From positions 6,167-70,166 of the forward strand of contig QZJN01000001.1 in NCBI GenBank assembly GCA_003599335.1: a DNA stretch of 64,000 nt. The letters are read 5' to 3'. The notes beneath the pieces are model-generated. The model was not told the DNA's origin and ran no database searches. It saw nothing but the letters and a program-made list of their open reading frames with translations. The position numbers and the translations under genes are program-made. The stretch's first letter is position 1; every line of letters begins with the position of its first letter. Below are positions 45,506 to 63,737 of the stretch, in pieces. The stretch comes from Candidatus Parcubacteria bacterium. Lineage in GTDB: Bacteria > Patescibacteriota > Minisyncoccia > SURF-38.

Positions 45506-45540
45506 GACCTCGTGGTTTTCCCGAGGTCTTTTGCTTTTTG
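45506..45540 (+). terminator. Rho-independent terminator after the TPR gene.
   Basis: Stem gacctcg...cgaggtc, followed by ttttgcttttt. Confidence 0.5.
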
Positions 45541-45716
45541 GAGAGTTTATTTTTTGGAGTTTTTTAAGATTTTGGAACTTATATTATTGTCGTTATATAC
45601 TACAAGTGGGTCGGGGATACCCATCTAAAGACTTTGGAATTGGGGTACATCTCCCCGGCCCGTTTTTAACTGCCGCCTTGCTGGGGCGGTTTTTTGTTGG
45701 ATGCTACAATAATCGT

Positions 45717-46673
45717 GTGAAGCTGATAAATATCCAACAAAAAACTAAATTGGCGCCCCTTACTTCATTTAGGGTTGGGGGAGATGCCAAATTTTTCTTT
45801 GAAGCTAAAACCAACGAAGAAGTTGGTTTGGCTATGATGTATGCATATGAGGAGAGTCTGCCTCTGTTTATACTCGGCGGGGGGACCAATATTTTGGTTT
45901 CAGATGGGGGTTTTGATGGGATTGCGATAAAACCCAACATTAAAAATATTAAGCCCGGTGAAGATTTCTTGAGTGTTGGCTCCGGAGCTTCTATGGAGAG
46001 TGTTCTAGATTATTGTCTTGAAAGGGGATTTTCTGGTCTGGAGTGGTCCGGTGGTTTGCCGGGAACAATCGGGGGAGCGGTCAGGGGCAATGCCGGAGCT
46101 TTTGGCGGGGAAATTTCAAATATAATCTCTGAAGTTTTGAGCATAAATGTTATTGGGGTTCAACCAAAGTTGATTCGTCGTTCGAGCAAAGATTGTAATT
46201 TTAGTTATCGTTCAAGCCTTTTTAAAACAAAAGAAGAAAAAGAAATTATTACCGAGGTTGTTTTGAGGTTTGATCACAAAAATAAAGATGAGCTTCGTAG
46301 GGTTGCTCAAGAAAAAATTCAATATCGGGCGGCAAATCATCCGCTTGAGTATCCAAACGCCGGCAGTATTTTTAAAAATATAAAAGCCCAAGATGCCCCG
46401 GAAGAGCTTTTCGAGCGAGCCCAAAAACTCGGTAAATTAAAAGGCAGGCCGGAAAGGATGATGATGCCAACAGCCTTCGTGATCGAAGAAACTGATCTTA
46501 AGGGTTTTAGTATTGGCGGGGCAGAAATTTCAACCAAGCATGCGAATTTTATAGTAAATAAAGGAAGGGCCACTGCCAAAGACATTTTTTCTTTGATAAA
46601 TCTTGTTAAGGAAAAAGTTGCCAAAAAATGGAAACTTGACTTAGAGGAAGAAATTCAGTATTTGGGTTTTTGA
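45717..46673 (+). CDS. murB: UDP-N-acetylenolpyruvoylglucosamine reductase MurB.
   Basis: FAD-binding domain (LTSFRVGGDAKFFFEAKTNEE ... LFILGGGTNILVSD). The C-terminal MurB_C shows KWKLDLEEEIQYLG. Start placed at GTG 45717. The 186 bp upstream, in the longer ORF 45531, contain terminator-like hairpins and no MurB homology. Confidence 0.75.
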   Translation: MKLINIQQKTKLAPLTSFRVGGDAKFFFEAKTNEEVGLAMMYAYEESLPLFILGGGTNILVSDGGFDGIAIKPNIKNIKPGEDFLSVGSGASMESVLDYCLERGFSGLEWSGGLPGTIGGAVRGNAGAFGGEISNIISEVLSINVIGVQPKLIRRSSKDCNFSYRSSLFKTKEEKEIITEVVLRFDHKNKDELRRVAQEKIQYRAANHPLEYPNAGSIFKNIKAQDAPEELFERAQKLGKLKGRPERMMMPTAFVIEETDLKGFSIGGAEISTKHANFIVNKGRATAKDIFSLINLVKEKVAKKWKLDLEEEIQYLGF

Positions 46674-47092: not shown

Positions 47093-47515
47093 ATGAAAGT
47101 TATAATTTCAACGAGAAATCTTTCTTTAACCAAAGCATTGCAGGATTATATTGATAAAAAAATCAATAGCCTTGAGCATTTTATTGAAGCTTCTGCCAAG
47201 TTTAACTCGCAAGCTTTAGCCAGAGTTGAGATTGAAAAAATGACCCAACATCATAAAAAGGGAGATTATTTTAAAGCTTCAGCGATTTTAACTTTATCAA
47301 GTTATCGTTTCAGGGCAGAGAGTTTAGGCCCGGATCTTTACGCGGCTGTAGATGAGTTAAAAGATGAACTTGCTCGGCAGCTGAAGCACGATCGCGGTAA
47401 AAAAACAGCCAAGTACTTAAGAGGCGCAAGGTTTTTCAAGCACATAGTTAAATTTTCTCCCTTAGCTTGGTTTAAAAACAAAAAAGGCCATCGCGAACGA
47501 GAGGAGGGTTTTTAA
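47093..47515 (+). CDS. hpf: Ribosome hibernation-promoting factor (HPF/RaiA family).
   Basis: The N-terminus MKVIISTRNLSLTKALQDYIDKKINSLEHF... is the conserved HPF start. Sits in the conserved hpf-secA gene pair. Confidence 0.8.
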   Translation: MKVIISTRNLSLTKALQDYIDKKINSLEHFIEASAKFNSQALARVEIEKMTQHHKKGDYFKASAILTLSSYRFRAESLGPDLYAAVDELKDELARQLKHDRGKKTAKYLRGARFFKHIVKFSPLAWFKNKKGHREREEGF

Positions 47516-47523
47516 ATCAATCA

Positions 47524-50166
47524 ATGCTGAATTTTTTATTCGGAGATTCAAACGAGAGGGTGATAAAAAGACTCCGTCCAATTGCCGAACGTATTGGGGA
47601 GTTTGAACAAAAAACCGAAAAGTTATCTAATGAAGAATTAAAACAAAAAACTCAAACCTTTAAGGGAAGTTTGAGTTCGGGGATATCTTTGGAAGATATT
47701 TTGCCAGAGGCTTTTGCTCTTGTTAGAGAAGCCGCTAAAAGAACTTTGAAACAAAGACACTTTGATGTCCAGCTTATGGGCGGGGTGGTTTTGCATGAAG
47801 GTAATATAGCCGAGATGAAAACCGGCGAAGGCAAGACTTTGGTTGCGACTTTATCTGCCTATCTGAATTCTTTATCGGGAGAAGGAGTTCATGTTGTGAC
47901 GGTCAATGACTATTTGGCCAGACGCGATAGCGTTTGGATGGGACAGATTTATCATATGCTCGGCCTTAAGGTTGCATGCATAAATCATGACGCCTCATAT
48001 CTTTATGATCCGACACATATTGAAAAACAAGAAGAAAAAGACAAAGAACGCGATATTTTAGGCAGCTTCAAGGTTATATATGAATTTTTAAAGCCGATAT
48101 CGCGCAAGGAGGCCTATGAGGCTGATATTGTTTATGGAACAAATTCGGAATTCGGATTTGATTATTTAAGAGATAATTTAAGTTATGATAAAAACCAAGT
48201 CGTTCAACGGGGACACCATTACGCAATTGTTGATGAAATTGACTCAATTTTAATTGATGAGGCGCGAACACCCCTTATTATTTCAGCGCCAGACGAAGAG
48301 GCCGGCGAGCTTTATCGTAAATTTGCACAAGTGGCTAAGTATCTTAAACCGGGGACCCATTATCTCGTTGATGAAAAACGTCGGGCGACAACAATTACCG
48401 ACGAAGGCATAGAGGAGGCCCAAAGAAGAGCAGGAATTGGAAATATCTATGAAGCTGGGAATATTCGCTATGCCCACCATTTGGAGCAGGCGGTTCGGGC
48501 TGAAGCTTTATTTAAGCGTGATAAGGATTATGTGGTAAGAGATGGCGATATAGTGATAGTTGATGAATTCACTGGTAGGCTTTTGCCGGGCAGGCGTTAT
48601 TCAGAGGGGCTTCATCAGGCTATTGAAGCAAAAGAGGGTGTTAAAGTGCAAAGAGAATCAAAAACAGTAGCAACAATAACTTTTCAGAATTATTTCAGAT
48701 TATATAAGAAACTTTCCGGAATGACGGGTACGGCTTTAACCAGCGCCCAGGAATTTCATAAAGTTTACAATATTGAAGTTGTGGTAATACCTCCAAATAA
48801 GGCCTTGGCGCGCAAGGATTTGTCAGATGTTATTTATAAAACAGAACAGGCTAAATGGCGTGCCGTTGTAGAAGAGATAAAGTTGCGTCAGCAAACGGGT
48901 CAACCTGTTTTGTGCGGTACAACTTCAATTGAAAAAAACGAAAAATTGAGTGCCATGCTTAAAGTTGCCGGTGTGCAGCACAAAGTTTTAAACGCAAAAA
49001 ATCACGAACAGGATGGTGAAATTATTGCTCAAGCTGGCAAAGCCGGCGCGGTGACTGTCGCGACAAATATCGCTGGAAGAGGAGTTGATATTATCCTTGG
49101 GGGAAATCCGGCTTCGGCCGAGGAAGCCGAGCTGGTGAAAGCCGCAGGCGGCCTACATGTTATTGGAACTGAAAGGCACGAAGCCAGGCGTATTGATAAC
49201 CAACTTCGCGGGCGGGCCGGCAGGCAAGGAGACCCAGGTTCATCGCAATTTTTTGTTTCTTTGGAAGACGATGTTATTAGGGTTTTTGGCGGTGAACGCA
49301 TTAAGGGGTTTATGGAGACGCTGGGTCTGCCAGAAGATGTTCCGATTACTCATGGCATGGTTAGTAAGGCAATTGAATCAGCTCAAGCCAAAATAGAATC
49401 TTTTAATTTTGACGCCCGAAAATATGTTCTTGAGTTTGACGACGTAATGAACAAGCAGCGTCAGTATCTTTATAAATTACGTAGAGATATCGTTGAATCA
49501 GCATCGCAAAACCCTCAAAAAATAAAAGAGCTTGTTTTGGAATATATAAAATCTCAAACAAGAAAGTTGGTTGAATTTCACTTTTCTCAAGAGGGAGGGT
49601 TAAACAAAGACGAATTTAATAAGGTTTTGGTTGCTTGGGCAGGAGATCGGGGCTGGCAGAATATAGTTGAGAAAAATAATAGTGATTTAGAAGCGATCAT
49701 AGAAAGACTAACGGAAAAGTTTAATATCTTATATGAACAAAAAGAAAAAGAAGCCGGAAAAGATATTTTTTTTCAAACACAGAAAAACCTTTTGTTGCAG
49801 GTTATAGACACTTTATGGACCGAGCATATAAATAATATGGAGCATTTAAGAGATTCGGTGCGCTTGAGAGCTTACGGGCAAAGAGATCCCCTTGTTGAAT
49901 ACAAAAAAGAAGGACTAGAATTGTTTAAGCAATTAAAAGAAGCAATTCCGGGATTATTTGTGGCAAATATATTTAAAGTAGGAATGGCGAGTGGAACACA
50001 GAAAGCACAACAACAAGCCGTAGGCTATAAACCTGTAAGCCATAAGAGTTCTACGGCTTACGGCTCGACGTCTGTTAAGGCTGGGGACAAAAAAGTTGGT
50101 CGGAATGATCCGTGCTGGTGCGGTAGTGGTAAAAAGTTCAAGAAGTGTCACGGCAAGGGGAACTAG
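47524..50166 (+). CDS. secA: Preprotein translocase ATPase SecA.
   Basis: DEAD-like motor (KTGEGKTLVATL, DEID). PPXD and helical scaffold domains. C-terminal zinc-binding tail CWCGSGKKFKKCHG. Confidence 0.95.
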   Translation: MLNFLFGDSNERVIKRLRPIAERIGEFEQKTEKLSNEELKQKTQTFKGSLSSGISLEDILPEAFALVREAAKRTLKQRHFDVQLMGGVVLHEGNIAEMKTGEGKTLVATLSAYLNSLSGEGVHVVTVNDYLARRDSVWMGQIYHMLGLKVACINHDASYLYDPTHIEKQEEKDKERDILGSFKVIYEFLKPISRKEAYEADIVYGTNSEFGFDYLRDNLSYDKNQVVQRGHHYAIVDEIDSILIDEARTPLIISAPDEEAGELYRKFAQVAKYLKPGTHYLVDEKRRATTITDEGIEEAQRRAGIGNIYEAGNIRYAHHLEQAVRAEALFKRDKDYVVRDGDIVIVDEFTGRLLPGRRYSEGLHQAIEAKEGVKVQRESKTVATITFQNYFRLYKKLSGMTGTALTSAQEFHKVYNIEVVVIPPNKALARKDLSDVIYKTEQAKWRAVVEEIKLRQQTGQPVLCGTTSIEKNEKLSAMLKVAGVQHKVLNAKNHEQDGEIIAQAGKAGAVTVATNIAGRGVDIILGGNPASAEEAELVKAAGGLHVIGTERHEARRIDNQLRGRAGRQGDPGSSQFFVSLEDDVIRVFGGERIKGFMETLGLPEDVPITHGMVSKAIESAQAKIESFNFDARKYVLEFDDVMNKQRQYLYKLRRDIVESASQNPQKIKELVLEYIKSQTRKLVEFHFSQEGGLNKDEFNKVLVAWAGDRGWQNIVEKNNSDLEAIIERLTEKFNILYEQKEKEAGKDIFFQTQKNLLLQVIDTLWTEHINNMEHLRDSVRLRAYGQRDPLVEYKKEGLELFKQLKEAIPGLFVANIFKVGMASGTQKAQQQAVGYKPVSHKSSTAYGSTSVKAGDKKVGRNDPCWCGSGKKFKKCHGKGN

Positions 50167-51755
50167 AGGATAAAGTCGATCTCCACACGGCCTTCTCCTG
50201 CGCGAATTTCCTTGATAATACTGCGTAGAATCAACTTTCGCTCATCCAGCTCCATAGCCGCCCAAGCAGTATCAAAATCTCTCATCGAAGCCACCAGTTT
50301 TTGGATAGAGGCACCTTTTTGTGCGGTCAGGGACGATAGTGTCGCCAAGCGATCCCGCTCCGTGCGGCTTTTCCCAGTTTCCTCTCGAATTTTCTCAATT
50401 CGCGCTTGGTATTCCTCGATCGTGGAAATACCTCTTTCGTAGGCATCGTGTTGGCGCTGTATCTTGATTGGTTCGAGTGCTATCTCTCGCTCTAAGCGTA
50501 CAATCTCTTTTTCTCGATCCTGCTCGTCTTGCCCCTTTTCCTCGTAGACGATCTTTTCCTGAACTTTAGGATGCGAGTATAGGTTTTTTATGTGATCGAG
50601 TACATCAGCTTCCAATCTCGTGGCGCTCATTACTCGTTGTGAGCAAATGCCTTTGTATTTGTAGCCAGTGCAGATGTACTCAAATGTGATCGTGTTTTTC
50701 CAATTTGGATTTTTCTTTGATCTTGAATGGTATCGTTTTTGGTATCCCACGCCATTTCCGCATCGGATGCATTTAGCGAGGCCTGTAAGGAGCCCGTGTG
50801 ATCGTGCAGCTGCCCCGCGTGCGCTTCTTGTGCGACCGTTACGGATCTCTTGAACTTTATTAAATAGAGGCGGATCGATTATTGGTGTGTGGTTTCCATC
50901 GCCAATGTATCCGAGTTTGCCTCTGCGTCGCCACTCTTTTGTTTTCCTATATTCAGCGTGTCGCCAGCCCCACCACACTTTGCCCATGTAGGTTGGATTG
51001 CACAAAATGTATCGAAGAGCGGCTTTTGACCAGTCGCCACCTCTGCGAGCTTTCCAGCCCTTGCGATTCATTTCAATGACTATCTTCCTGTCTCCTATGC
51101 CTCGTGCGTATTCGTTGAAGATATATTTCACCCGCGTGGCTTCTTCTTCGTTCACAACCACTGTTCTCTTGATTCGTGCGCCGTCTAGTTCTCGTTTAAC
51201 CTCGTAACCATAGGGAACTCGGTTTGGAATGCTTCCAGCTTTTGCTTTTCCCAGCTTTCCCATTTTCATACGCTGGATAATTGCCTTACGCTCCATGTCC
51301 GATCTTAGGTCGGACATTGCCTCAACCATTGTTCCCATTTGGTCTTCGTCGGGTTCATACTCACCAGTTGATTTTGGTTCAAAGGGCGTATTGAGGGCGT
51401 AAGTTTGAATGCTTAATTCTTTGAGTTCGCCTCTTATAACGCCAGCGGCATCTTTGTTTCTGGCAAAGCGATCATAATCTTTGACCACGATGAGATCGAA
51501 TTTGTGTTCACGCGCATCTCGCAACATTGACTGAAGACCGTTTCGCTCCTCGGTAAGGTGACCGCTGATGCCCTCGTCTTTGTATTCTTGGATAAACGAC
51601 CATCCCTTTTCGTTGATGCTTTTGTGACAGCGTTCCAGCTGATCGGGAATGGACGCTTTGCCCTGGGCCTGTTCTTGGGTGCTTACGCGAACGTAAATGA
51701 CCGCTCGTAAGACTTGGGGCTTCTTGTCGATATTCGGTTGGGTCAGATTAAGCAT
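50163..51755 (-). CDS. Large serine recombinase (resolvase/invertase catalytic domain, recombinase domain and zinc ribbon).
   Basis: N-terminus AVIYVRVSTQEQ (catalytic Ser). The ~530-aa length, the central recombinase domain, and Cys clusters (CIRCGNGVGY ... CTGYKYKGICS) are typical of phage/ICE serine integrases. Confidence 0.85.
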   Translation of the reverse strand: MLNLTQPNIDKKPQVLRAVIYVRVSTQEQAQGKASIPDQLERCHKSINEKGWSFIQEYKDEGISGHLTEERNGLQSMLRDAREHKFDLIVVKDYDRFARNKDAAGVIRGELKELSIQTYALNTPFEPKSTGEYEPDEDQMGTMVEAMSDLRSDMERKAIIQRMKMGKLGKAKAGSIPNRVPYGYEVKRELDGARIKRTVVVNEEEATRVKYIFNEYARGIGDRKIVIEMNRKGWKARRGGDWSKAALRYILCNPTYMGKVWWGWRHAEYRKTKEWRRRGKLGYIGDGNHTPIIDPPLFNKVQEIRNGRTRSARGAAARSHGLLTGLAKCIRCGNGVGYQKRYHSRSKKNPNWKNTITFEYICTGYKYKGICSQRVMSATRLEADVLDHIKNLYSHPKVQEKIVYEEKGQDEQDREKEIVRLEREIALEPIKIQRQHDAYERGISTIEEYQARIEKIREETGKSRTERDRLATLSSLTAQKGASIQKLVASMRDFDTAWAAMELDERKLILRSIIKEIRAGEGRVEIDFIL

Positions 51756-53575: not shown

Positions 53576-53819
53576 ACTTTCACATTCTGCGTAAAATACT
53601 CGTTTTATTCAAGTTTGCCGAGCGGCCGCCTACGCATTTCCATCAAGTTATGGTATTATTTTTACGACAATTGAATATTCGCCTAAACTCGTCGATTTCT
53701 CGGCGGGCATGGTATCAAGACCGATAAAGCATAAAAAACCCGTCATGGGGTTGCTTTATCGGCCGTATGGGGAAACCTGTACGTCTTGCGCAAGCGAGAG
53801 ACCCGTGGCGGGCTTTTTG

Positions 53820-54068: not shown

Positions 54069-54257
54069 ATGTCAGAGGAAAAACTTCTAACAATCGAAGA
54101 GGTGGCAGAGAAGCTCCGTGTTAGTACACGGACGATTATTCGCTATATCGAATCAGGTCGACTTAAGGCATCAAAAATCGGTGTGTGGCGCATTAAGGAA
54201 TCTGATCTAGCCCACTTCCTTGAGGAGTCGAGCAACGTTAAGCGCAAGAAGAAATAA
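54069..54257 (+). CDS. Excisionase/MerR-type HTH DNA-binding protein.
   Basis: LLTIEEVAEKLRVSTRTIIRYIESGRLKASKIGVWRIKESDL matches the HTH_17 / excisionase-family helix-turn-helix. Confidence 0.65.
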   Translation: MSEEKLLTIEEVAEKLRVSTRTIIRYIESGRLKASKIGVWRIKESDLAHFLEESSNVKRKKK

Positions 54258-54258
54258 T

Positions 54259-56613
54259 ATGCCTGACAAATCCTTATCAGAACGAGATATTTGCACCAAA
54301 TTCATCACACCCGCGATCACGAAAGCAGGATGGGATTTGCAGCACCAGATTCGAGAAGAGGTATCTTTTACCGCTGGACGTATTAATGTCCGCGGAAAGA
54401 CTATTTCGAGGGGAGAGAGGAAGCGTGCCGATTATATTTTGTATTATAAAAACAATCTTCCGATCGCTCTTATTGAGGCAAAAGACGCAAGTCATTCCGT
54501 CGGCGATGGTATGCAGCAGGCTCTCGGGTATGGGCAGGTGCTTGATATCCCGTTTGTATATAGCTCAAATGGTTCGGGGTTTCTTGAGCACGATTTTTTT
54601 AGTGGTTCTGAAAAGGAGATTTCTATTGATGCCTTTCCTGATCCCGCCGAGCTTTATCGCAGATATCGAGAGCAAAAGAAGCTAACCCCAGAAATAGAAG
54701 AGGCGGTTCTTCAGGATTATTATCAGGGTTTAACATCGCATGAGCCGCGATATTACCAGCGCGTAGCAATAAATCGCGCTGTTGAGGCGGTAGCACGGAA
54801 TCAGAAGCGGATTTTGTTGGTAATGGCTACTGGAACTGGAAAGACCTATACCGCCTTTCAGATAATCTGGCGGCTTTGGAAAGCACGGAAGAAAAAGCGA
54901 ATACTTTTCCTTGTTGATCGCACAGCTCTCGCAACGCAGACCATGCAGGGCGATTTTCGCCACTTTGGCGATAAGATGACGAAGATTGAAGGGCGAATCG
55001 CCGATCCCTCCTATGAGGTCTACATTGCTTTATATCAGGGACTCACAAGCCATGAAGAGCAGAATAAGCTTTTTAAACAATTTTCTTCCGATTTTTTTGA
55101 TCTCGTTGTCGTTGATGAGTGTCACAGGGGAAGCGCAAAAGAGAATTCTGTGTGGCGTGAAATTCTCGAATACTATTCCGACGCAACTCAAATTGGTCTG
55201 ACTGCTACGCCAAAAGAGACGAAGGATATCAGCACGCAAGACTACTTTGGGGATGCGGTATACACCTATTCTTTAAAACAGGGAATCGAGGATGGATTCT
55301 TGGCTCCCTACAAAGTTATTCGTTATGTTCTCGATAAAGATATTGAGTGGCGGCCGAATGAATTAGTGCGCGATCAGCACGGAAATCCGATTGAGGATCG
55401 TGTATATAATGCTTCCGATTACGATCGCAACATTGTTATCAAGAATCGAACTAAGCTCGTTGCGCAAAAGATTACCGAATTTGTGCGGGATACTGATCCG
55501 ATGCAAAAGGCGATTATTTTTTGCGTTGATATTGATCATGCCGAACGAATGCGGGAAGAACTGGTAAACGCCAACAGCGAATACGTATCCAAGAATCATC
55601 GCTATGTGGTACGCATCACGGGCGATAATGACGAGGGTAAAAAGGAGATTGAGAATTTCATCAACCCCGAGTCGCCATACCCAGTATTGGTTACAACTTC
55701 CAAGCTTCTAACTACTGGTGTCGATGCTCAAACATGTAAACTCATTGTTCTCGATGCTCCCATAAATTCGATGAGCGAATTCAAGCAGATTATTGGTCGT
55801 GGGACTCGCGTGAACGAGGATTACGGCAAGTTTTATTTCACGATCATGGATTTTCGAGGCGTAACGCGGCTGTTCGCTGATCCTAACTTTGATGGAGAGC
55901 CTGTAAAGATCTACGAACCAGATGATAAGACGACCATCGGGCAACACATTGAGGAAGAAACAGTTGATCCGAGTGAAATTAAAGAAGAGAATCCGCAGGA
56001 GGAAATTTTGATTGACCCTACTCTTGAGGAAGGAGAGAAGAAGGAGAAGGTGGTAGTCACGCGAGGAGTTGAATTCGATGTGGCGACAAAAATGATTCAG
56101 TATATTGACCCTGCCACGGGCAAACTTATTGCAGAGAATCTTACGGATTACTCCAAGAAGCAGATTTTAGGTACGTTGCCATCGCTCGATGCATTTATTA
56201 AAGAGTGGTCTGCCGCGGAGCGCAAAGATGCGATTATTCAGGAGTTAGAAAGCAGAGGTGTGCCGCTGGAAGAACTGCGAAAGGAGATAGGGTTAAATGT
56301 CGATGTTTTTGATTTGGTGCTACACGTGGCTTATAACCGAAAGCCGCTCACACGCTCAGAACGGGTGGCAAACGTGCGCAAAGGGGATTATTTTGCCAAA
56401 TACGAGGGTAGGGCGCGGCAGGTTATCGAGGCATTACTTGATAAGTACGCTGACCAAGGTAGTATCGCCATCGACGATATTGGCGATCTTGAAGTTTCGC
56501 CATTTGCAGAAATAGGGACTCCTGTTGAGATAGTTAATGATATTTTTGGTGGCCGAGAGCAATACTTTGGAGTTTTGAAAACTTTACAAGAAAAACTCTA
56601 CGCACTTAACTAG
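54259..56613 (+). CDS. hsdR: Type I restriction enzyme R subunit (HsdR).
   Basis: N-terminal PD-(D/E)xK nuclease (ICTKFITPAI...GW; IALIEAKD). SF2 helicase motifs I LLVMATGTGKT and II DECHR. The hsdM and hsdS genes lie immediately downstream. Start placed at MPDKS. Confidence 0.8.
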   Translation: MPDKSLSERDICTKFITPAITKAGWDLQHQIREEVSFTAGRINVRGKTISRGERKRADYILYYKNNLPIALIEAKDASHSVGDGMQQALGYGQVLDIPFVYSSNGSGFLEHDFFSGSEKEISIDAFPDPAELYRRYREQKKLTPEIEEAVLQDYYQGLTSHEPRYYQRVAINRAVEAVARNQKRILLVMATGTGKTYTAFQIIWRLWKARKKKRILFLVDRTALATQTMQGDFRHFGDKMTKIEGRIADPSYEVYIALYQGLTSHEEQNKLFKQFSSDFFDLVVVDECHRGSAKENSVWREILEYYSDATQIGLTATPKETKDISTQDYFGDAVYTYSLKQGIEDGFLAPYKVIRYVLDKDIEWRPNELVRDQHGNPIEDRVYNASDYDRNIVIKNRTKLVAQKITEFVRDTDPMQKAIIFCVDIDHAERMREELVNANSEYVSKNHRYVVRITGDNDEGKKEIENFINPESPYPVLVTTSKLLTTGVDAQTCKLIVLDAPINSMSEFKQIIGRGTRVNEDYGKFYFTIMDFRGVTRLFADPNFDGEPVKIYEPDDKTTIGQHIEEETVDPSEIKEENPQEEILIDPTLEEGEKKEKVVVTRGVEFDVATKMIQYIDPATGKLIAENLTDYSKKQILGTLPSLDAFIKEWSAAERKDAIIQELESRGVPLEELRKEIGLNVDVFDLVLHVAYNRKPLTRSERVANVRKGDYFAKYEGRARQVIEALLDKYADQGSIAIDDIGDLEVSPFAEIGTPVEIVNDIFGGREQYFGVLKTLQEKLYALN

Positions 56614-56621
56614 ACTAACTT

Positions 56622-58046
56622 ATGCCGATCGAAAATCTTATCAAAACAATCCAAAATATAATGCGCAAAGACCAGGGCGTTGCTGGTGATGGTCAGCGCA
56701 TTGAGCAGATAGTGTGGATGTTATTTCTGAAGATTTTTGATGATCAGGAAAAGTATTACGAGCTTCGAGATCAGAAGTATCGTTCTCCAATACCCGAGAA
56801 GCTTCGTTGGAGAAATTGGGCGGCAAACCCCGAAGGAATCACAGGCGATGAGTTATTGGAATTTGTAAACCAAAAGCTCTTTCCAGGTCTCAAGAATCTC
56901 TCAGTTGATTCCAGTGATAGGCGCGGCCTTCTTGTTCGTACCGCTTTTGAGGATGCCTATAACTACATGAAATCAGGGACGCTGATTCGACAGGTGGTAA
57001 ACAGGATCAATGAGATTGATTTCAACAAGAAGTCAGACCGTCACTTACTTAATGATATCTACGAGAAGCTTCTGAAAGAACTTCAGGGTGCGGGTAATTA
57101 CGGCGAGTTTTATACGCCTCGGCCGCTTACAAAGTTTATTGTTGAGATGATCGACCCGAAGCTTGGTGAAAAGGTGCTCGACCCCTCGTGTGGTACTGGC
57201 GGTTTCTTGGTGAATACGATTGAGTATGTCCGTGAGAATTATGTAAAGAGCCATGCAGATGAAAAGAAACTCCATGATTCGATTCATGGTGTTGAGCTCA
57301 AGTCATTGCCACATCTTCTAGCACTTACAAACATGATTCTTCATGGGATTGAGTTGCCCGACAATGTTCGTCGCGATGATATGCTTTCTCGGCCACTAAC
57401 GGAATATGGCCCTAAGGATCGTGTCGATGTAATTGTGGCGAATCCTCCCTTTGGTGCTTCGGTTAAGGACGGAACTGAGAAGAATTTTCCAAGTGAAATG
57501 CGCACCAAAGAAACTGCCGATCTCTTTTTGATTTTATTCATTCATCTTTTGAAAGATGGTGGCCGAGCGGGCATCGTATTGCCCGACGGATCGCTTTCTG
57601 GTGAAGGTGTTAAGGCTCGGATTAAAGAAAAATTGCTTGCAGAATGTAATGTACACACAATTGTTCGGTTGCCACAGGGTGTGTTTAGTCCCTATGCTGG
57701 TGTAAACACCAACCTCGTCTTTTTTGAGAAGGGGAAACCGACTAAGGAAATTTGGTACTACCAGTTGCCGCTTCCAGAAGGAATTAAGCAATACACAAAG
57801 GGGCGTGGCATTACGCACGATGAATTTGATTCTGTTCGAAAATGGTGGAAGAAGCGCGTTACGAACGAGAACGCTTGGAAAGTCTCAATAGATAAAATAA
57901 AAGAACGCAATTACAACATTGACATTAAAAATCCCAATGGTGGTACTTCGGTTAACTTCGGAGACCCTGTGGATGTTCTTGAAAAAATCGTTAACTCCGA
58001 GAAAGAAATCATTGCGCTTTTGAATGAAATTAAGAAAGAATTATGA
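56622..58046 (+). CDS. hsdM: Type I R-M N6-adenine DNA methyltransferase (HsdM).
   Basis: Motif I DPSCGTGGFL. Motif IV NPPFG. N-terminal HsdM_N region. Confidence 0.9.
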   Translation: MPIENLIKTIQNIMRKDQGVAGDGQRIEQIVWMLFLKIFDDQEKYYELRDQKYRSPIPEKLRWRNWAANPEGITGDELLEFVNQKLFPGLKNLSVDSSDRRGLLVRTAFEDAYNYMKSGTLIRQVVNRINEIDFNKKSDRHLLNDIYEKLLKELQGAGNYGEFYTPRPLTKFIVEMIDPKLGEKVLDPSCGTGGFLVNTIEYVRENYVKSHADEKKLHDSIHGVELKSLPHLLALTNMILHGIELPDNVRRDDMLSRPLTEYGPKDRVDVIVANPPFGASVKDGTEKNFPSEMRTKETADLFLILFIHLLKDGGRAGIVLPDGSLSGEGVKARIKEKLLAECNVHTIVRLPQGVFSPYAGVNTNLVFFEKGKPTKEIWYYQLPLPEGIKQYTKGRGITHDEFDSVRKWWKKRVTNENAWKVSIDKIKERNYNIDIKNPNGGTSVNFGDPVDVLEKIVNSEKEIIALLNEIKKEL

Positions 58047-59236
58047 ATCATTGGCCGCTTAAAAAATTAGGTGATGAATCGATCCTCATGATGACTAGCG
58101 GTGGAACTCCATCTCGCTCTAAATCTGAATTTTATGGAGGTAAGATTCTTTGGCTAAAATCTGGTGAATTGAATGATAATCAAAAGATTTCCGATTCAGA
58201 AGAAAAGATCACTGATCAAGCGGTTAAGAACTCTAGTGCCAAACTTTTCCCGCCTCATACAGTGCTTTTTGCAATGTATGGAGCTACCGCAGGAAAATTA
58301 GGCATATTAGATGTAGAAGCAACCACAAATCAAGCAGTTGCAGGAATGATTTGTAACGACAGCGTTCTATTTTATAAGTACCTTTTTTATTTTTTGCTAT
58401 ACACACGAGAAAAAATCATTGCTAATGCTTGGGGAGGAGCGCAACCAAATTTAAGCCAGACAATAATCAAGAAGTTTGAAATACCTGTTCCGTCTATTTC
58501 AGAACAAAAGAAAATAGTTACGAAACTTGAAAGTTTACTCGCGAAGGAAAATCAGGTAAAGCAACTACGAGAACAAACACAAGTCGATACGGACAGTTTA
58601 ATTTTCGCAGAACTACATAAGATTTTTAAGGAAGGCAAAGCAAAAGGATGGGAAGAAAAAGATTTGGGCAATGTGCTAGAAAAGATTGTTGGTGGTGGAA
58701 CTCCGTCAAAGGCTAACCCCTTATATTGGGACGGAGATATTCCCTGGGCAAGCGTGAAGGATATTAAAGAGGGCCAGTACACATTAGCCGAAACACAAGA
58801 TTTTATAACCAAGGAGGGACTGCAAAATAGTGCTTCAAATATTGTCCCCGCTGGATCACTGATTATTTCAACAAGAATGGGACTTGGTCGTATTGTTAAA
58901 ACAGAGATTGATGTTGCTATAAATCAAGATCTAAAGGCCTTATACCCAAAAAAAGAATTAAACAATGATTACCTGCTTTGGTTCTATATTAGCAAGGCCC
59001 AGGAAGTAATCGCTAGTGGAACTGGGGCAACCGTTTCTGGTGTTCGTTTGGACGACATTAAGAGCATAAAAATTCTATTACCATCTCTGACGGATCAAAA
59101 GAAAATTGTTGATCATCTCACCCTGCTTTTGGAGAAAATTAAAAACACCAAGTCTTTACAGGATGTAACTTATAGTGAGATTGGTATTTTAGAACAATCA
59201 ATTTTATCAAAAGCATTTAGCGGAAGCTTTGTTTAA
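58043..59236 (+). CDS. hsdS: Type I R-M specificity subunit (HsdS) with two target-recognition domains.
   Basis: Duplicated TRD pattern (…SGGTPSRSKSEFYGGKILWLKSGEL… and …GGGTPSKANPLYWDGDIPWASVKDI…) separated by conserved helical spacers. Start overlaps the hsdM stop (ATGA). Confidence 0.8.
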   Translation: MNHWPLKKLGDESILMMTSGGTPSRSKSEFYGGKILWLKSGELNDNQKISDSEEKITDQAVKNSSAKLFPPHTVLFAMYGATAGKLGILDVEATTNQAVAGMICNDSVLFYKYLFYFLLYTREKIIANAWGGAQPNLSQTIIKKFEIPVPSISEQKKIVTKLESLLAKENQVKQLREQTQVDTDSLIFAELHKIFKEGKAKGWEEKDLGNVLEKIVGGGTPSKANPLYWDGDIPWASVKDIKEGQYTLAETQDFITKEGLQNSASNIVPAGSLIISTRMGLGRIVKTEIDVAINQDLKALYPKKELNNDYLLWFYISKAQEVIASGTGATVSGVRLDDIKSIKILLPSLTDQKKIVDHLTLLLEKIKNTKSLQDVTYSEIGILEQSILSKAFSGSFV

Positions 59237-59416: not shown

Positions 59417-62320
59417 ATGTCTTCGTTACGACAATTAAAGCAACAAATAAAATTCAGTTTAAACAATTTGAAAGCTGAAAACTCCCATCATGATTTTGAG
59501 GCTATTTGTCGACATTTTGCACGAAAACGATTAGGCCTGAATATAATTCCCGCTACAGGGCCCGTTTCAGCTGGAGGAGACCAGGGGAGAGATTTCGAAA
59601 CTTATGAAATATTACCAGAGGCAGTTCCAGAACTTCGAGGAACAAGACAGGTTATAGACAAGAAAGCCGCTTTTGCTTGCACTACGCAGGCCGAAGGTCT
59701 TTTATCCAAGATAAAAGCGGATGTTAATAAAATTATTACTCAAGGTAATAGGGTTGATATAGTTTATTTTTTTTCAGTGCAGGATCTACCTGTGTCCGAG
59801 CGGCACGATCTGCAAAAGTGGGCACTAGAAACACATAAAATTACCTTAGAAGTTTTTGATGGCGAAGCGCTTTCTGAAGACCTGACTGAGAGAGACTTAT
59901 TTTGGGTAGCCCAGGAATATTTACATATTCCTGCCGAGTTATTCCCACCCGTTGATAATATTGATTACTTGAAGCTGAAAGAAAAGTGGGAAACGAGAGA
60001 GTTGTCAGTTCCCAATTACGCCGAATTCGACGAGATAAAAAGCTTAGCTAGGAAATCATTATTCGATAAATCCCTGAATCAAGATATTCCATTTTGGTTA
60101 GATAAGTTGGCAAAGTTCGCAGCAATTAAAGATATTTCCTCGGAATTTAAGAGGAAAGCTCTTTATGAGTTAATAGCCATTCGCATGAGGGGCATGCGCG
60201 ACATGGTTGGTTGGGAGCATTACACGCACGAATACTTTGCAGCTCATGAGAGTTTTAACCATCAAGTTGAAGCGCAAGAGGCCACGGTTGTTTTAGGGTA
60301 TGCCTTCGGGGCATCAGTAAGAGGGGCGGCAAATTTTGAAGAGAGTCAATTAAAGACGTGGATCAAGCTTATCGAGGATTATACGGATCACGAGCTAAGT
60401 AAAGATTATCCCGTTGCAATAAGGGCAGTTTTATACGAATTAAAAGGTCATCAACTACTTACTAATCCGTACAATAGGAAAATTGATGAAGGGTTGGATT
60501 GGTGGCTCAAGCTTGTTGATCTTATTGAGCAATCACCATTATTCCCACTTGAAAGATTTTCTGATGTTCTGACCGTTCTCATTCCGCTTATAGGTGACCA
60601 TCCAAAATTTGAAGAATTGAAAATCAAAACCGATGCTCTTATCGCACAACGAATAGGTGGTTTTGCGGTTGCTGATAAATGCAGAGATAGAGCAATTGAG
60701 TATAGAAAAAACGATGAATTGTTAAAAGCCCTTCGAGAATTTCATAGTGCCAAGATAAATTGGTTTGCAAACGAAACTCTATATGGATCATTGCTTTCAA
60801 TGATGATCATATCGGAGACCTACTTTGAGCTAGGTCTTTTATTTGCGGCAAAATACTACGCTATGGCAGTTACTTTTGTTGCGAGTCGTTCTCCAGATGA
60901 CAAAATAAAGCCATTCATTACCAGAGGGCTTTCACAGGTTGCGGAAATCGAATACGGCAATGGCGAATGGGGTCATTTTATGGAACACGCCGATCTAAGC
61001 CTGAGGTCTTTAGGTGTACACTCGAAGACCATTGAAGATCCAATTTCTGAAAAGATTTATGAGAAAACACTGTTTTACTCTTCAATGGTTTATGTTTTTG
61101 CGAAGGTACTTGATGGTAAGAAACTTTTTAATTATGTGGCAGATAGAGTTAAGAAATGGAATATTTCTGAGCTTAACGATGATTTGATTCCGATAGCAGA
61201 GAAAACCTGGGCAGAGGTTAAAGCAGAAAATATGCTTGAGAAAATCAAAGCCTCGCTTGAGGGCAGACCGTTTAATGATGTTGGATCTACCCGATCTGTT
61301 TTGTGGGAAGCATGCGGGATTAGTTGGAAGTGTTCTTGGAACAATACGTTAAGGGGATGCGCGAGAGCAGAACATTTTATATCGCTAGTCCAAATAATTC
61401 TTGCGGATATCGCAGATAGAGATTTTTACTTATTAAAAACAGACGCACAAATAAAGTTCATTTTCACAGATAAGTTTCATATCGAGCGGGTGCCTACAAA
61501 TGATTATGTCGCGTGGGATATATATCTTCCAACGCATAATCCAGATGGAAGGAGGGAAATTGAGGAATATCATGCGCAAATTCTAAGTATGGCAGCTGCA
61601 GTCATTGCTGATTTGTCTTTGTTACCATCCGAACAGACACTAGAGAAAATCAAGGATTTATATAAGCAAGGTCTTGTGTCGAAAGCGCTGTCAGGAAATT
61701 CTTATGAAGTTTTGTACATCGACTTGAACCCCGAAGAGTTATTTAATGAACTGATCTCATTACCACAATTAGACTATTTGCAGTCTATGGAGATAGGGAA
61801 TAAGCCCCATAAATTACTAAACTGGGAGAGCTCTTTATTAAAAGGATACAGCCCAAAAGAAGAGCGTGAGAAGATTGAAAATAGGTATACGCGATCAATA
61901 TTGCCAATAAGGAAGACTATTGAAAAATTAAAGAAGGACCCAAAATTTCAAGAGATGGTAAAGAGATTAAGGTCGGATGGATGGAAAGATTGGCACATTC
62001 TTATGTCATTGGGGATGATTGCTGTAAATTTTCGCGTTAATAAGATAGGCTACAAGTCGTTTGAATCCATGCGAGAACTATTTGTTAAGGAGATGAACAC
62101 TGAAGAAACGAATGATTCAACCCCAGTTCCCCTTGAAGAATTCAACGAAAAAGCACTTAGACTGTCACTGTTCATGAGTATGCCGTCGACTCTCAAAATC
62201 TTTGGGCTTGAGATTAAGACTCAAACACCAAATTCCAAGGCACTTGAGCATTTTTTGGCAAAGAGGCTTAATTATTGGAATAACGATATCGAGCACAAAG
62301 ATATCCTTGCTGTTTCTTAG
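59417..62320 (+). CDS. Uncharacterised 967-aa protein with an N-terminal Mrr-like PD-(D/E)xK restriction-endonuclease-type motif. Candidate defence gene.
   Basis: The N-terminal ~150 aa contain HDFE...GGDQGRDFE...(FACTTQ), resembling the Mrr_cat D...GDxGxD...(Q)xK arrangement. The remaining ~800 aa are largely helical with no P-loop and no recognisable motif. Sits directly 3' of a complete Type I R-M operon. Confidence 0.6.
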   Translation: MSSLRQLKQQIKFSLNNLKAENSHHDFEAICRHFARKRLGLNIIPATGPVSAGGDQGRDFETYEILPEAVPELRGTRQVIDKKAAFACTTQAEGLLSKIKADVNKIITQGNRVDIVYFFSVQDLPVSERHDLQKWALETHKITLEVFDGEALSEDLTERDLFWVAQEYLHIPAELFPPVDNIDYLKLKEKWETRELSVPNYAEFDEIKSLARKSLFDKSLNQDIPFWLDKLAKFAAIKDISSEFKRKALYELIAIRMRGMRDMVGWEHYTHEYFAAHESFNHQVEAQEATVVLGYAFGASVRGAANFEESQLKTWIKLIEDYTDHELSKDYPVAIRAVLYELKGHQLLTNPYNRKIDEGLDWWLKLVDLIEQSPLFPLERFSDVLTVLIPLIGDHPKFEELKIKTDALIAQRIGGFAVADKCRDRAIEYRKNDELLKALREFHSAKINWFANETLYGSLLSMMIISETYFELGLLFAAKYYAMAVTFVASRSPDDKIKPFITRGLSQVAEIEYGNGEWGHFMEHADLSLRSLGVHSKTIEDPISEKIYEKTLFYSSMVYVFAKVLDGKKLFNYVADRVKKWNISELNDDLIPIAEKTWAEVKAENMLEKIKASLEGRPFNDVGSTRSVLWEACGISWKCSWNNTLRGCARAEHFISLVQIILADIADRDFYLLKTDAQIKFIFTDKFHIERVPTNDYVAWDIYLPTHNPDGRREIEEYHAQILSMAAAVIADLSLLPSEQTLEKIKDLYKQGLVSKALSGNSYEVLYIDLNPEELFNELISLPQLDYLQSMEIGNKPHKLLNWESSLLKGYSPKEEREKIENRYTRSILPIRKTIEKLKKDPKFQEMVKRLRSDGWKDWHILMSLGMIAVNFRVNKIGYKSFESMRELFVKEMNTEETNDSTPVPLEEFNEKALRLSLFMSMPSTLKIFGLEIKTQTPNSKALEHFLAKRLNYWNNDIEHKDILAVS

Positions 62321-62329
62321 AATATTCAA

Positions 62330-62521
62330 ATGAGTAGACGATCATTTCATGGCAACTTAGGTTCATTACTCAACAAGCTGTTTACGCTGGTCATTTTTCT
62401 GATTCTGTTCAAGCTTTTTGGAGATTCGGTTTTAGATGCCGCTGTGATAGGATTGATATCATTAGCGGTTTATCCTTTAGTCGGAATGCTTTTAAGAGCC
62501 GTCGGGATATGGCGTTACTAA
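62330..62521 (+). CDS. Small two-TM membrane protein (speculative).
   Basis: 63 aa: LFTLVIFLILFKLF ... VIGLISLAVYPLVGMLL. Confidence 0.3.
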   Translation: MSRRSFHGNLGSLLNKLFTLVIFLILFKLFGDSVLDAAVIGLISLAVYPLVGMLLRAVGIWRY

Positions 62522-62537
62522 CGGCAAAGATACAAAT

Positions 62538-62702
62538 ATGGGTATAATGGCACCAAAAATTGAAAGCGCGGAAGCTCTTAAGGCTATAGCAAAAGAGGCT
62601 AGTAAGGCTTGGTATTTGAAGCCTGAAATTTGGATAGGAATTGTGGCCAATGTAATTGCCATCGGTGCGCTGGTCGTTGCCGTAATTGCCTTGCAGAAAT
62701 GA
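62538..62702 (+). CDS. Small membrane protein (speculative).
   Basis: 54 aa: amphipathic N-terminus then IWIGIVANVIAIGALVVAVIAL. Below the ORF-track cutoff. Confidence 0.25.
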   Translation: MGIMAPKIESAEALKAIAKEASKAWYLKPEIWIGIVANVIAIGALVVAVIALQK

Positions 62703-62750
62703 CCTTCCCATTGGTATCGCATATCAAAAAATGCCATGGGAAATGATCAT

Positions 62751-62900
62751 ATGAGATGTCCAAAATGTAGCCAAGAAATGTTTATAAAACGAGAAGATAC
62801 AAGTTCTGATTCCAGAAATAATAAGCAATACGACCGTAAAGTGTACTGGTGTAAAAAGGATGATGTATGGGTCAGCATCGAGATTCCGAAAGAAGTATAA
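62751..62900 (+). CDS. Small zinc-ribbon protein (speculative).
   Basis: MRCPKCSQEM...VYWCKKDD: C-x2-C ... C pattern. Shares the upstream motif aaaaat(g/a)ccatgggaaat with the SET gene. Confidence 0.35.
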   Translation: MRCPKCSQEMFIKREDTSSDSRNNKQYDRKVYWCKKDDVWVSIEIPKEV

Positions 62901-62908
62901 AAAATACC

Positions 62909-63397
62909 ATGGGAAATAGAGAACTTTTAGTAGTAAAGAAGAATAAGAAAGGTTATGGAGTGTACGCTGGTAGGATGTATAAAAAGGGAGAGGTAATTTG
63001 TGTAATGCATGGTAAAAAGAAAACACCTCATACACTTCATTACCATGGGGCAAGTTTTCGTGAAGCCCAAATAAACCCTCTCCAGATTGGCCCAAAAACA
63101 TACTTGGAGCTGCGAGCGCCTTATCGGTATTTCAATCATTCTTGCCAGCCCAATGCTGGAGTACAAGATTCTTCAAAACTTTTTGCATTAAAGCCCATTA
63201 AGAAGGGTGAAGAAGTTACTTTTGACTACTCTACAACAATTGATGAAAGTTTCTTCTGTAAATGCGGTTCTAAAAGATGTCGTGGAGTTATTGCCGACTT
63301 TTTTGCTCTTCCGTTAAAATTACAGAAGTTTTACATTCGGCAGAAAGCAGTGCCGGCGTTTATTGAAAAGAAATACAAAGTTCGTTATGGAAAGTAA
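62909..63397 (+). CDS. SET-domain protein (putative protein-lysine methyltransferase).
   Basis: Core SET motifs RYFNHSCQPN and EEVTFDY. Post-SET Cys cluster CKCGSKRCRG. Start placed at MGNRELL (62909); the ORF track begins at 62867. Confidence 0.8.
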   Translation: MGNRELLVVKKNKKGYGVYAGRMYKKGEVICVMHGKKKTPHTLHYHGASFREAQINPLQIGPKTYLELRAPYRYFNHSCQPNAGVQDSSKLFALKPIKKGEEVTFDYSTTIDESFFCKCGSKRCRGVIADFFALPLKLQKFYIRQKAVPAFIEKKYKVRYGK

Positions 63398-63737
63398 AAA
63401 ATACACCCTAAGATTTCGGAGGGTAAATCGGGATACTTTTTTGCAAATAAAGAAAGGCACGAAAAAAGTTGAAACTCGGGCCGCAACCAAAAAGTATAAA
63501 GATATTAAGGTTGGCGATACATTAGTTTTTGCATGCGAAAAAGAAAGGTTTCAACGAAAAGCAAAGAGGGTTAATTATTTTAAATCGGTTTTGGCAATGC
63601 TGAAAAAATACAAGGTTAAAGACGTAGAGCCTAAGCTTTCAAAAAAAGATGATTTGGAGGAGAAATATAATAGCTACCCCAAATATAAAGAAAAAATTAA
63701 GAAGTTCGGCTTAGTAGCTTTAGAGTTAAAAAAATAA
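63387..63737 (+). CDS. ASCH-domain (PUA-like beta-barrel) protein.
   Basis: Carries the ASCH signature GxKxxExR (IKKGTKKVETR). About 115 aa, typical of stand-alone ASCH proteins. Overlaps the SET gene end by 11 bp (translational coupling). Confidence 0.7.
   Translation: MESKKYTLRFRRVNRDTFLQIKKGTKKVETRAATKKYKDIKVGDTLVFACEKERFQRKAKRVNYFKSVLAMLKKYKVKDVEPKLSKKDDLEEKYNSYPKYKEKIKKFGLVALELKK

Follow-up and report, generated by a model that had tools for sequence, protein, structure and literature searches.

SET and ASCH genes downstream of secA, beside a type I restriction-modification island, in a Candidatus Parcubacteria genome

In an 82.9-kb contig of a Candidatus Parcubacteria metagenome-assembled genome (JGI metagenome 3300007352), a gene for a predicted SET-domain methyltransferase (62909..63397, forward strand; 162 amino acids, aa) is followed, with a short overlap, by a gene for a stand-alone ASCH protein (63387..63737, forward strand; 116 aa), which is of the PH0355/PF0455 type and PUA-like. 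Coordinates refer to the whole stretch of 64,000 nucleotides (nt) that was analysed, hereafter the window; L001 denotes a 20-kb contig stretch around the ASCH gene, and adding 53386 to an L001 coordinate gives the window coordinate. A sequence-only reading of this DNA had presented SET and ASCH as a translationally coupled pair inside a defence island, and possibly as a defence or regulatory module. Our comparisons favour a different explanation. SET and ASCH are probably functionally independent small genes that belong to a variable string trailing secA in Parcubacteria, and they stand beside an inserted restriction-modification (R-M) island. Their adjacency appears to be specific to the lineage of the window.

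Neighbours of SET and ASCH genes in other genomes

Gene contexts were collected from both sides of the pair. For ASCH, one genome per GTDB species was scanned, which gave 131 relatives, nearly all in Patescibacteria; the best 80 of these 131 were taken with 6-kb flanks. For SET, the samples comprised 80 metagenomic loci scanned with the family profile, 123 immediate neighbours at ~85 non-viral loci searched with Pfam, and ~115 loci scanned with the family profile and for the ASCH octapeptide. Among the 80 ASCH loci of other species, none had an adjacent SET gene. One locus held a solid SET gene that was not adjacent but 1.8 kb off (L078), and another held a SET fragment 5.7 kb from ASCH (L009). 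From the SET side, no member of the window ASCH family was detected in the 80 metagenomic loci, and Pfam reported no ASCH domain among the 123 immediate neighbours, whose commonest matched families were EamA, LysM and GGDEF/EAL. The motif scan of open reading frames (ORFs) at the ~115 loci returned no ASCH protein except at L082.

This metagenomic contig of 1.2 kb carries an ASCH-like gene (240-704) ending 1 nt upstream of a SET gene (706-1182), whose product is 54% identical to the window SET. The ASCH-like protein has 154 aa and the octapeptide GQKKIELR; it scored 16 bits against Pfam ASCH, which is below threshold, and aligned to the family with 65% probability in hhalign. L082 appears to carry another ASCH subtype, with the gene order reversed, and it is the only other SET-ASCH adjacency that we found. 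No fusion of the two domains occurred in the top 100 homologues of each protein (97-190 aa for ASCH, 148-217 aa for SET). Adjacency or fusion in other genomes, to which the sequence-only reading had looked for confirmation, came down to L082; in essence, the pair was not kept as neighbours elsewhere.

The nearest SET orthologues have neighbours other than ASCH. In L174 (75% SET identity), the gene stands between an NTP_transferase gene and an HD-domain gene; in L163 (71%), it follows a racemase gene and precedes a MazG-like gene and adk; and in L162 (65%), it is the last in the order murB, hpf, secA, 77-aa gene, SET. Other settings are UDG, SET and YbaK in L164; secA, a 209-aa gene, SET, GNAT and a cytidylyltransferase in L170; and DUF1653, SET and DUF5652 in L169. 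In L165-L168, SET is flanked by neighbours without a known family.

These contexts bear on the proposal of a dedicated defence or regulatory module made up of SET and ASCH, in which the ASCH barrel would recognise RNA or a modified base and SET would methylate a partner protein, with or alongside the type I R-M system. The overlap between the two genes implies co-transcription and possibly translational coupling, both genes share the strand of hsdRMS and lie 3.7 kb beyond hsdS, and L082 provides an independent second adjacency with the order reversed. In addition, certain bacteria have DNA methyltransferases with a fused or linked ASCH/PUA-like domain (PMC4738411). The lack of conserved adjacency and of fusions argues against such a module, and so do several other results. 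In PADLOC, SET had no match and ASCH had only one to HamC/DUF3223 (E=0.0025, 16 bits), which is not credible. The ASCH family was absent from 2.9 million viral contigs, where the SET family was represented by 20 distant loci, none of them with an ASCH neighbour. A recurrent location in defence islands outside the window contig was not found among the identified ASCH neighbours, some frequent clusters being unnamed. Moreover, L162 has its SET gene in a matching secA synteny without R-M genes, and the overlap has the generic architecture of a secA junction, as described below. We regard a dedicated module as quite unlikely. Literature searches found no paper joining SET and ASCH functionally, and a scan for promoter and terminator consensus sequences near the genes gave scores not above those of shuffled sequences.

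The end of secA and the junctions behind it

The neighbourhood of ASCH points to secA. Within 3 kb of ASCH, SecA was encoded in 31 of the 80 loci, NUDIX in 18, SecDF in 11, cytidylyltransferase in 8 and SET in one. Across the whole loci, secA was present in 35 of the 80, with a median distance of ~1 kb from its end to the ASCH gene downstream; ASCH followed secA directly in four loci, and hpf lay upstream of secA in several. SET orthologues occur just behind secA in L162 and L170, and the murB-hpf-secA synteny of the window (murB, 45531-46673; hpf, 47093-47515; secA, 47524..50166, forward strand) is common to L162, L170 and L177. The window secA matches Pfam SecA_DEAD (2e-124) and SEC-C (1.8e-10), and its product terminates in an intact SEC-C motif, CWCGSGKKFKKCHGKGN, followed by the stop. 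We suggest that secA would be the native anchor of the small-gene string that holds SET and ASCH.

In the window, secA and SET are much further apart than in L162. A translated comparison showed L162 to be collinear with the window over 44.2-50.15 kb (transferase, murB, hpf, secA) and again over 62.9-63.4 kb (SET), with no counterpart of 50.16-62.9 kb and a secA-SET gap of 445 bp. A large serine recombinase gene (50163-51755, reverse strand; Pfam Resolvase, Recombinase and Zn_ribbon_recom) runs towards secA and overlaps its end by 4 nt, and GC content is 0.44-0.48 over 50-58 kb as against 0.37-0.40 around it. Because L162 is collinear without this segment, the recombinase abuts the secA stop and the GC content is higher over the first 8 kb, we infer that a block of ~12.6 kb was inserted between secA and the string of small genes. 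The recombinase would form the left edge of this block, which also holds a LOOT RNA, a helix-turn-helix (HTH) gene, hsdRMS and the gene of a 967-aa protein, and the secA 3' end may be the attachment site of the recombinase element. The R-M genes upstream of the pair, on which the defence-island view relied, are indeed there: HsdR, HsdM and HsdS are all encoded, contiguously, and constitute a type I R-M system. Since the block would have been inserted between secA and the SET/ASCH string, the pair would adjoin the R-M island and lie outside any defence system.

Next, we consider the short repeat that precedes both the SET gene and a small upstream gene for a zinc-ribbon-like protein (62751..62900, forward strand). 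The sequence-only reading had recognised this repeat and offered local duplication or shared regulation as its cause. It consists of AAAAAATGCCATGGGAAAT at 62726-62744 and AAAAAATACCATGGGAAAT at 62899-62917, exactly two copies with one mismatch, and is the sole pair in the whole window that matches at 18 or more of 19 positions within 300 nt; no such pair appeared in 30 shuffles. Copy 1 (62726..62746, forward strand), read one frame off from the ATG at 62736, is AAA AAA TGC CAT GGG AAA TGA, or K K C H G K stop. Together with its flank, copy 2 (62890..62919, forward strand), read one frame off from the SET ATG, gives the 10 codons AAG AAG TAT AAA AAA TAC CAT GGG AAA TAG, or K K Y K K Y H G K stop. 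The SEC-C motif of SecA ends in CPCGSGKKYKKCHGK and a stop, and its codons TGY-CAT-GGN contain an ATG. Read one frame off, both copies give KK(C/Y)HGK-stop, and the 19-mer is therefore best understood as an out-of-frame relic of a SEC-C terminus; within the second relic, the H-G codons contain the SET ATG at 62909. A degenerate 30-nt pattern of the SEC-C end, with up to 3 mismatches allowed, occurs in the window only at the secA end (50131-50160) and at the SET start (62890-62919), the chance expectation being 0.00 matches. The proposed local duplication can thus be traced to copies of a SEC-C-terminus junction. A shared regulatory site, by contrast, was rejected, as the position of the repeat differs between the two genes, 15 nt ahead of the zinc-ribbon start at 62751 but across the start of SET. 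The two copies were also tried as the ends of the island, but there is no third copy at the recombinase end. That both genes can start with MGN, another element of the sequence-only reading, holds for SET (62909); for the zinc-ribbon gene, the homologues begin at MRCP (62751), and MGN at 62736 is an alternative.

The ATG embedded in the SEC-C codons is used widely. In 12 of 31 Patescibacteria secA genes, it is the start of the next ORF (60 aa or longer), and the overlap is always 11 nt. The resulting N-termini are MGN, MGS, MEN and similar, while the downstream proteins are mutually unrelated; in L030, the gene that starts inside the secA end is ASCH itself. Out-of-frame relics also run across the SET start in L174 (NYKKCHGK-stop) and L162 (KKQKCHGK-stop). 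Across ASCH starts, the strict pattern [CY][HRY]Gx-stop was found as relics in L012, L014 and L028 and as the live secA end in L030, and about a dozen more ASCH starts have looser GK- or EK-stop endings, for example L002 (NKYKKRYGK-stop), L047, L068 and L075.

The end of the SET gene fits the same series. Its stop codon TAA occupies 63395-63397 and the ASCH ATG lies at 63387, which bears out the overlap of 11 nt. The window SET ends in KKYKVRYGK-stop, with the ASCH ATG inside its Y-G codons, and the SET homologue P0092 ends in KKYKKCHGK-stop. Four homologues (P0100, P0106, P0110 and P0124) carry the full CPCGSGKKYKKCHGK SEC-C motif recognised as Pfam PF02810, and P0120 and the SET proteins at L164:6001-6531 and L170:4168-4707 also end in a complete SEC-C zinc motif. 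At L164, a YbaK-like gene again overlaps the SEC-C terminus of SET by 11 nt. The SET C-terminus therefore appears to be SEC-C-derived, and since it is, its overlap with ASCH would be a generic secA-type junction. Overlaps are also frequent in the window, at 11 of the 33 same-strand gene junctions. Three junctions of the secA type would follow in a row: relic 1 and the zinc-ribbon gene, relic 2 and SET, and the degenerate SEC-C-type end of SET and ASCH.

A single origin, in a SecA end of the form KKYKKCHGK-stop with its embedded ATG, could account for the repeat, for the MGN of both genes and for the overlap of 11 nt, with no need for SET-ASCH coupling. Herein, we describe how this might have come about. 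The secA stop region would be a favoured landing site for genes. An insertion that separates two overlapping genes would have to duplicate their junction to keep both intact, and the duplicates would persist because each overlaps the start of its downstream gene. The block with its recombinase and R-M genes would have landed between secA and a SET/ASCH string that already existed. More generally, we put forward as a tentative idea, somewhat short of an even chance, that the secA stop region is a recurrent site of gene insertion and translational coupling in Patescibacteria, where SEC-C codons supply the start, KCHGK-stop fossils are left behind and SEC-C tails are captured. The literature searched held no description of the SEC-C terminus as a recurrent start site, although no search was aimed at it.

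Several points weigh against independent genes in a secA-anchored string. The SET and ASCH contexts come from ~12-kb loci and not from whole genomes. Two of ~9 SET contexts in the Patescibacteria clade include ASCH, which exceeds random expectation and may reflect some functional affinity. The right-hand border of the island can be placed only to 62320-62730. The junction-duplication model was derived from sequence relics, and part of relic 2 also encodes, in another frame, the conserved zinc-ribbon C-terminus IPKEV, which may add to the resemblance. With these points taken into account, we still regard functional independence of SET and ASCH as the probable reading.

SET, ASCH and other products of the locus

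The SET ORF holds RYFNHSCQPN, EEVTFDY and CKCGSKRC, and the assignment made from these motifs was upheld by profile and fold. Pfam SET (PF00856) scored 51.9 bits (cutoff 22.4, E=1.2e-13), and an AlphaFold2 model (pLDDT 88.4, pTM 0.84) matched MLL1, ASH1L, NSD1/2 and BurB in Foldseek at E 2e-9 to 1e-7. The protein has a GxG motif for binding S-adenosylmethionine (SAM) in GYGVYA, and its GxG, NHSC and FDY align to their MLL1 counterparts. In 25 SET homologues from Patescibacteria, cyanobacteria and proteobacteria, G15, G17, N76, H77, C79, D106 and Y107 were invariant; at the post-SET zinc site CxCx4C, C117 and C119 were invariant and C124 was conserved in at least 90%. Behind this site, the family has a specific C-terminal helical tail, DFxxLPxxxQxxYxxxGAVPxFI, and then the SEC-C-derived end. 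The sequence-only reading had called SET domains rare in bacteria, but this family is not rare there: at least 585 relatives were confirmed among the 600 pattern matches listed from one metagenome scan. No publication on Patescibacteria SET proteins turned up in literature searches.

For SET, the ATG at 62909 is the most likely start, giving 162 aa beginning with MGN, and not 62867, because the closest homologues are 157-161 aa long and begin with MGS, MPK or MEN. The database call of 176 aa, which starts at 62867, is probably 14 codons too long; it overlaps and masks the zinc-ribbon gene. Given the conservation of GxG, NHSC, FDY and all four cysteines of the zinc site, the protein is expected to be a catalytically competent SAM-dependent methyltransferase. 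Its substrate is most likely a lysine on an endogenous protein. Metal-binding domains like that of SecA make contact with SecB and with the ribosome. Since several orthologues retain a complete SEC-C zinc motif, it is possible, though speculative, that the SET target is associated with the ribosome or the translocon.

Two other roles for SET were considered. It could be a small-molecule methyltransferase like BurB, a bacterial methionine S-methyltransferase (9l4t/9l4v), with the ASCH gene unrelated to it. The SET family profile matches BurB (9l4t) at E=2.4e-15, the model matches the complex BurB-SMM-SAM (9l4v) at E=4e-9 with a template modelling (TM) score of 0.64, equal to the histone methyltransferase matches, and both proteins are stand-alone, bacterial and of ~160 aa. 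Sequence scores were higher for the MLL/NSD/ASH1L lysine methyltransferases than for BurB (75 vs 59 bits), however, and the complete post-SET zinc cluster with the FDY catalytic motif is typical of lysine methyltransferases. The SEC-C tail of the SET orthologues suggests binding to a macromolecule, and no biosynthetic genes lie near SET. We consider this role unlikely, though a serious alternative.

SET could also be a host-directed effector of an episymbiotic Parcubacterium that methylates proteins, among them those of chromatin, in a host that is itself a bacterium or archaeon, much as the SET effectors of Chlamydia and Legionella act in eukaryotic hosts. Methylation of host histones is established for bacterial SET effectors (PMC2904774, PMC3980110), and the group of the source organism is known for episymbiosis. 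TrwB/TraG-like and DUF8128 genes are present on the contig a few kb downstream. No genes of a host-interaction locus adjoin SET, however; the SET family also occurs in free-living cyanobacteria and proteobacteria, and the SET neighbourhood is made up of housekeeping and small accessory genes. An effector role is highly improbable, and methylation of an endogenous protein is the function that we prefer for SET.

The ASCH ORF starts at ATG 63387, in agreement with homologue N-termini of the form M..KKYTLRFR, and contains the octapeptide GTKKVETR, which has the GxKxxExR signature on which the earlier assignment was based. The single sequence scored 19.0 bits against Pfam ASCH (PF04266; cutoff 21.2). 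Of its 90 homologues, which are 42-64% identical to it, many have a precomputed PF04266 match. The family profile matches the structures of PH0355 (2z0t), PF0455 (1s04) and PF0470 (1xne, labelled PF0469 in the sequence file) at E = 1e-14 to 1e-9, with 1e-14 for PH0355 and 1e-13 for PF0455. An AlphaFold2 model (pLDDT 90) superimposed on PH0355 (2z0t) in Foldseek with TM scores of 0.80/0.85 and a root-mean-square deviation of 2.0 Å; 1s04, 1xne and 3iuw were the other matches. These results corroborate the ASCH assignment. Across 22 homologues, K26, E29, T30 and R31 were invariant and G24 was conserved in at least 90%.

All 19 ASCH proteins assayed in one study, archaeal ones of the GKER type included, strip N4-acetylcytidine (ac4C) from bacterial tRNA in vitro, and the Lys and Glu of the octapeptide are essential for this removal (bioRxiv 10.64898/2026.02.27.708502). 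The window ASCH is a GKER-type protein that most likely binds RNA and hydrolyses ac4C in tRNA or as the free nucleoside. Because NUDIX recurs near ASCH and house-cleaning genes (UDG, MazG-like, HD) surround SET orthologues, this deacetylation perhaps serves nucleoside salvage.

The zinc-ribbon-like protein of ~50 aa (MxCPxC...YWCxxDDVW..E.P, with a CxxC...C...D arrangement) is not in the source annotation. Its family comprises 189 representative clusters at E<=1e-3, nearly all starting with MxCPxC, which corresponds to the ATG at 62751, and C3, C6, C34 and D38 are invariant. The gene thus appears to be real, conserved and missed by annotation. In some proteins, the domain is fused to NUDIX (P0448) or PIN (P0373). 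It was found near another SET or ASCH gene in 0 of ~178 other loci. NCBIfam had no match for SET, ASCH, the zinc-ribbon protein or the 967-aa protein.

Within the putative inserted block, several ORFs without an assigned family and the HTH gene lie between the recombinase and hsdR. A full-length LOOT RNA (~53680-53799; Rfam RF03000, 87.9 bits, gathering score 46.4) sits just upstream of the HTH gene and hsdR. The R-M genes follow on the forward strand: hsdR (54220-56613; Pfam ResIII/EcoEI_R_C/HSDR_N), hsdM (56622-58046; Pfam N6_Mtase/HsdM_N) and hsdS (58043-59236; two Pfam Methylase_S domains). An ORF of ~55 aa separates hsdS from the gene of the 967-aa protein (59417-62320, forward strand), the last large gene of the block. 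This protein matched nothing in Pfam or PADLOC either; its 656 homologues have a uniform length of ~965-985 aa and occur in Patescibacteria, Chloroflexota, Bacteroidota, Methanobacterium and Bathyarchaeota. In L173, a homologue again follows an ORF of ~53 aa, with SocA_Panacea and a serine recombinase close by. The gene resembles a single-gene system that moves horizontally and may be related to defence. Two small membrane ORFs (62330-62521 and 62538-62702) come next, before the first copy of the repeat. Past the window, the contig encodes, in order, a 106-aa membrane protein, a NUDIX hydrolase, a 131-aa protein, secD and secF. Between the 131-aa gene and secD lies a GC-rich, apparently structured stretch of ~240 nt (64996-65236), which opens with a strong hairpin followed by a T-run and matches no Rfam family at gathering score.

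Significance and comparison with known systems

These results remove a false lead: the pair should not be catalogued as a defence or epigenetic module on the strength of its overlap and its proximity to R-M genes alone. Compact Patescibacteria genomes can mimic operon logic when overlaps of starts and stops are inherited from a junction and do not reflect functional coupling. What the locus does offer is two well-populated Patescibacteria families with intact catalytic residues, a SET family of ~160 aa that is sometimes SEC-C-tailed and a GKER-type ASCH family of ~115 aa. SET and ASCH each add a member to a family already known. Possible novelty is confined to evolution: downstream genes appear repeatedly to have taken the SecA SEC-C terminus as their start, with duplication and capture of this terminus. 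If this is true, insertions that read into a duplicated junction would acquire a SEC-C zinc tail, which would account for SEC-C-tailed SET methyltransferases and hint that these enzymes act at the ribosome or the translocon. If general, the secA-terminus junction would be a small, concrete case of new genes being plugged into an existing translation unit.

Compared with the SEC-C, or SecA C-terminal metal-binding, domain (PF02810), the 19-nt repeat and the SET end encode the last residues of the motif. The window copies outside secA are either out of frame or, as in KVRYGK, without the Cys and His ligands, and no metal binding is predicted for them. Like the SET domains of MLL1, ASH1L and NSD, the window SET has the GxG, the NHSC pseudoknot motif, the catalytic Tyr in (T)FDY and the post-SET CxCx4C; in contrast to them, it is without pre-SET/AWS and partner-binding domains and has a C-terminal tail of its own. 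The Phe/Tyr-switch position, which we take to align with Y3942 of MLL1, is Phe in the window SET. BurB is likewise a stand-alone bacterial SET protein, both being ~160-180 aa long, yet despite the profile and fold matches the two share only ~24% identity, and the window SET is without the context of a biosynthetic gene cluster.

YqfB of E. coli, an N4-acylcytidine amidohydrolase, shares the ASCH fold and the octapeptide Lys with the window ASCH, but has Thr where the latter has Glu (GKTR vs GKER). For ASCH proteins of the YqfB type, a role in ac4C catabolism or salvage has been proposed (PMC6972931); YqfB was absent among the sequence-profile and fold matches of the window ASCH. With PH0355, PF0455, PF0470, TthASCH and the ASCH proteins of Pyrococcus and Archaeoglobus, the window ASCH has in common a size of ~110 aa, the GxKxxExR signature and the PUA-like barrel. 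It is 25-28% identical to the ASCH proteins of solved structure, and belongs to a Patescibacteria-specific clade with a conserved motif of its own, Y-(K/R)-E-K-I, near the C-terminus.

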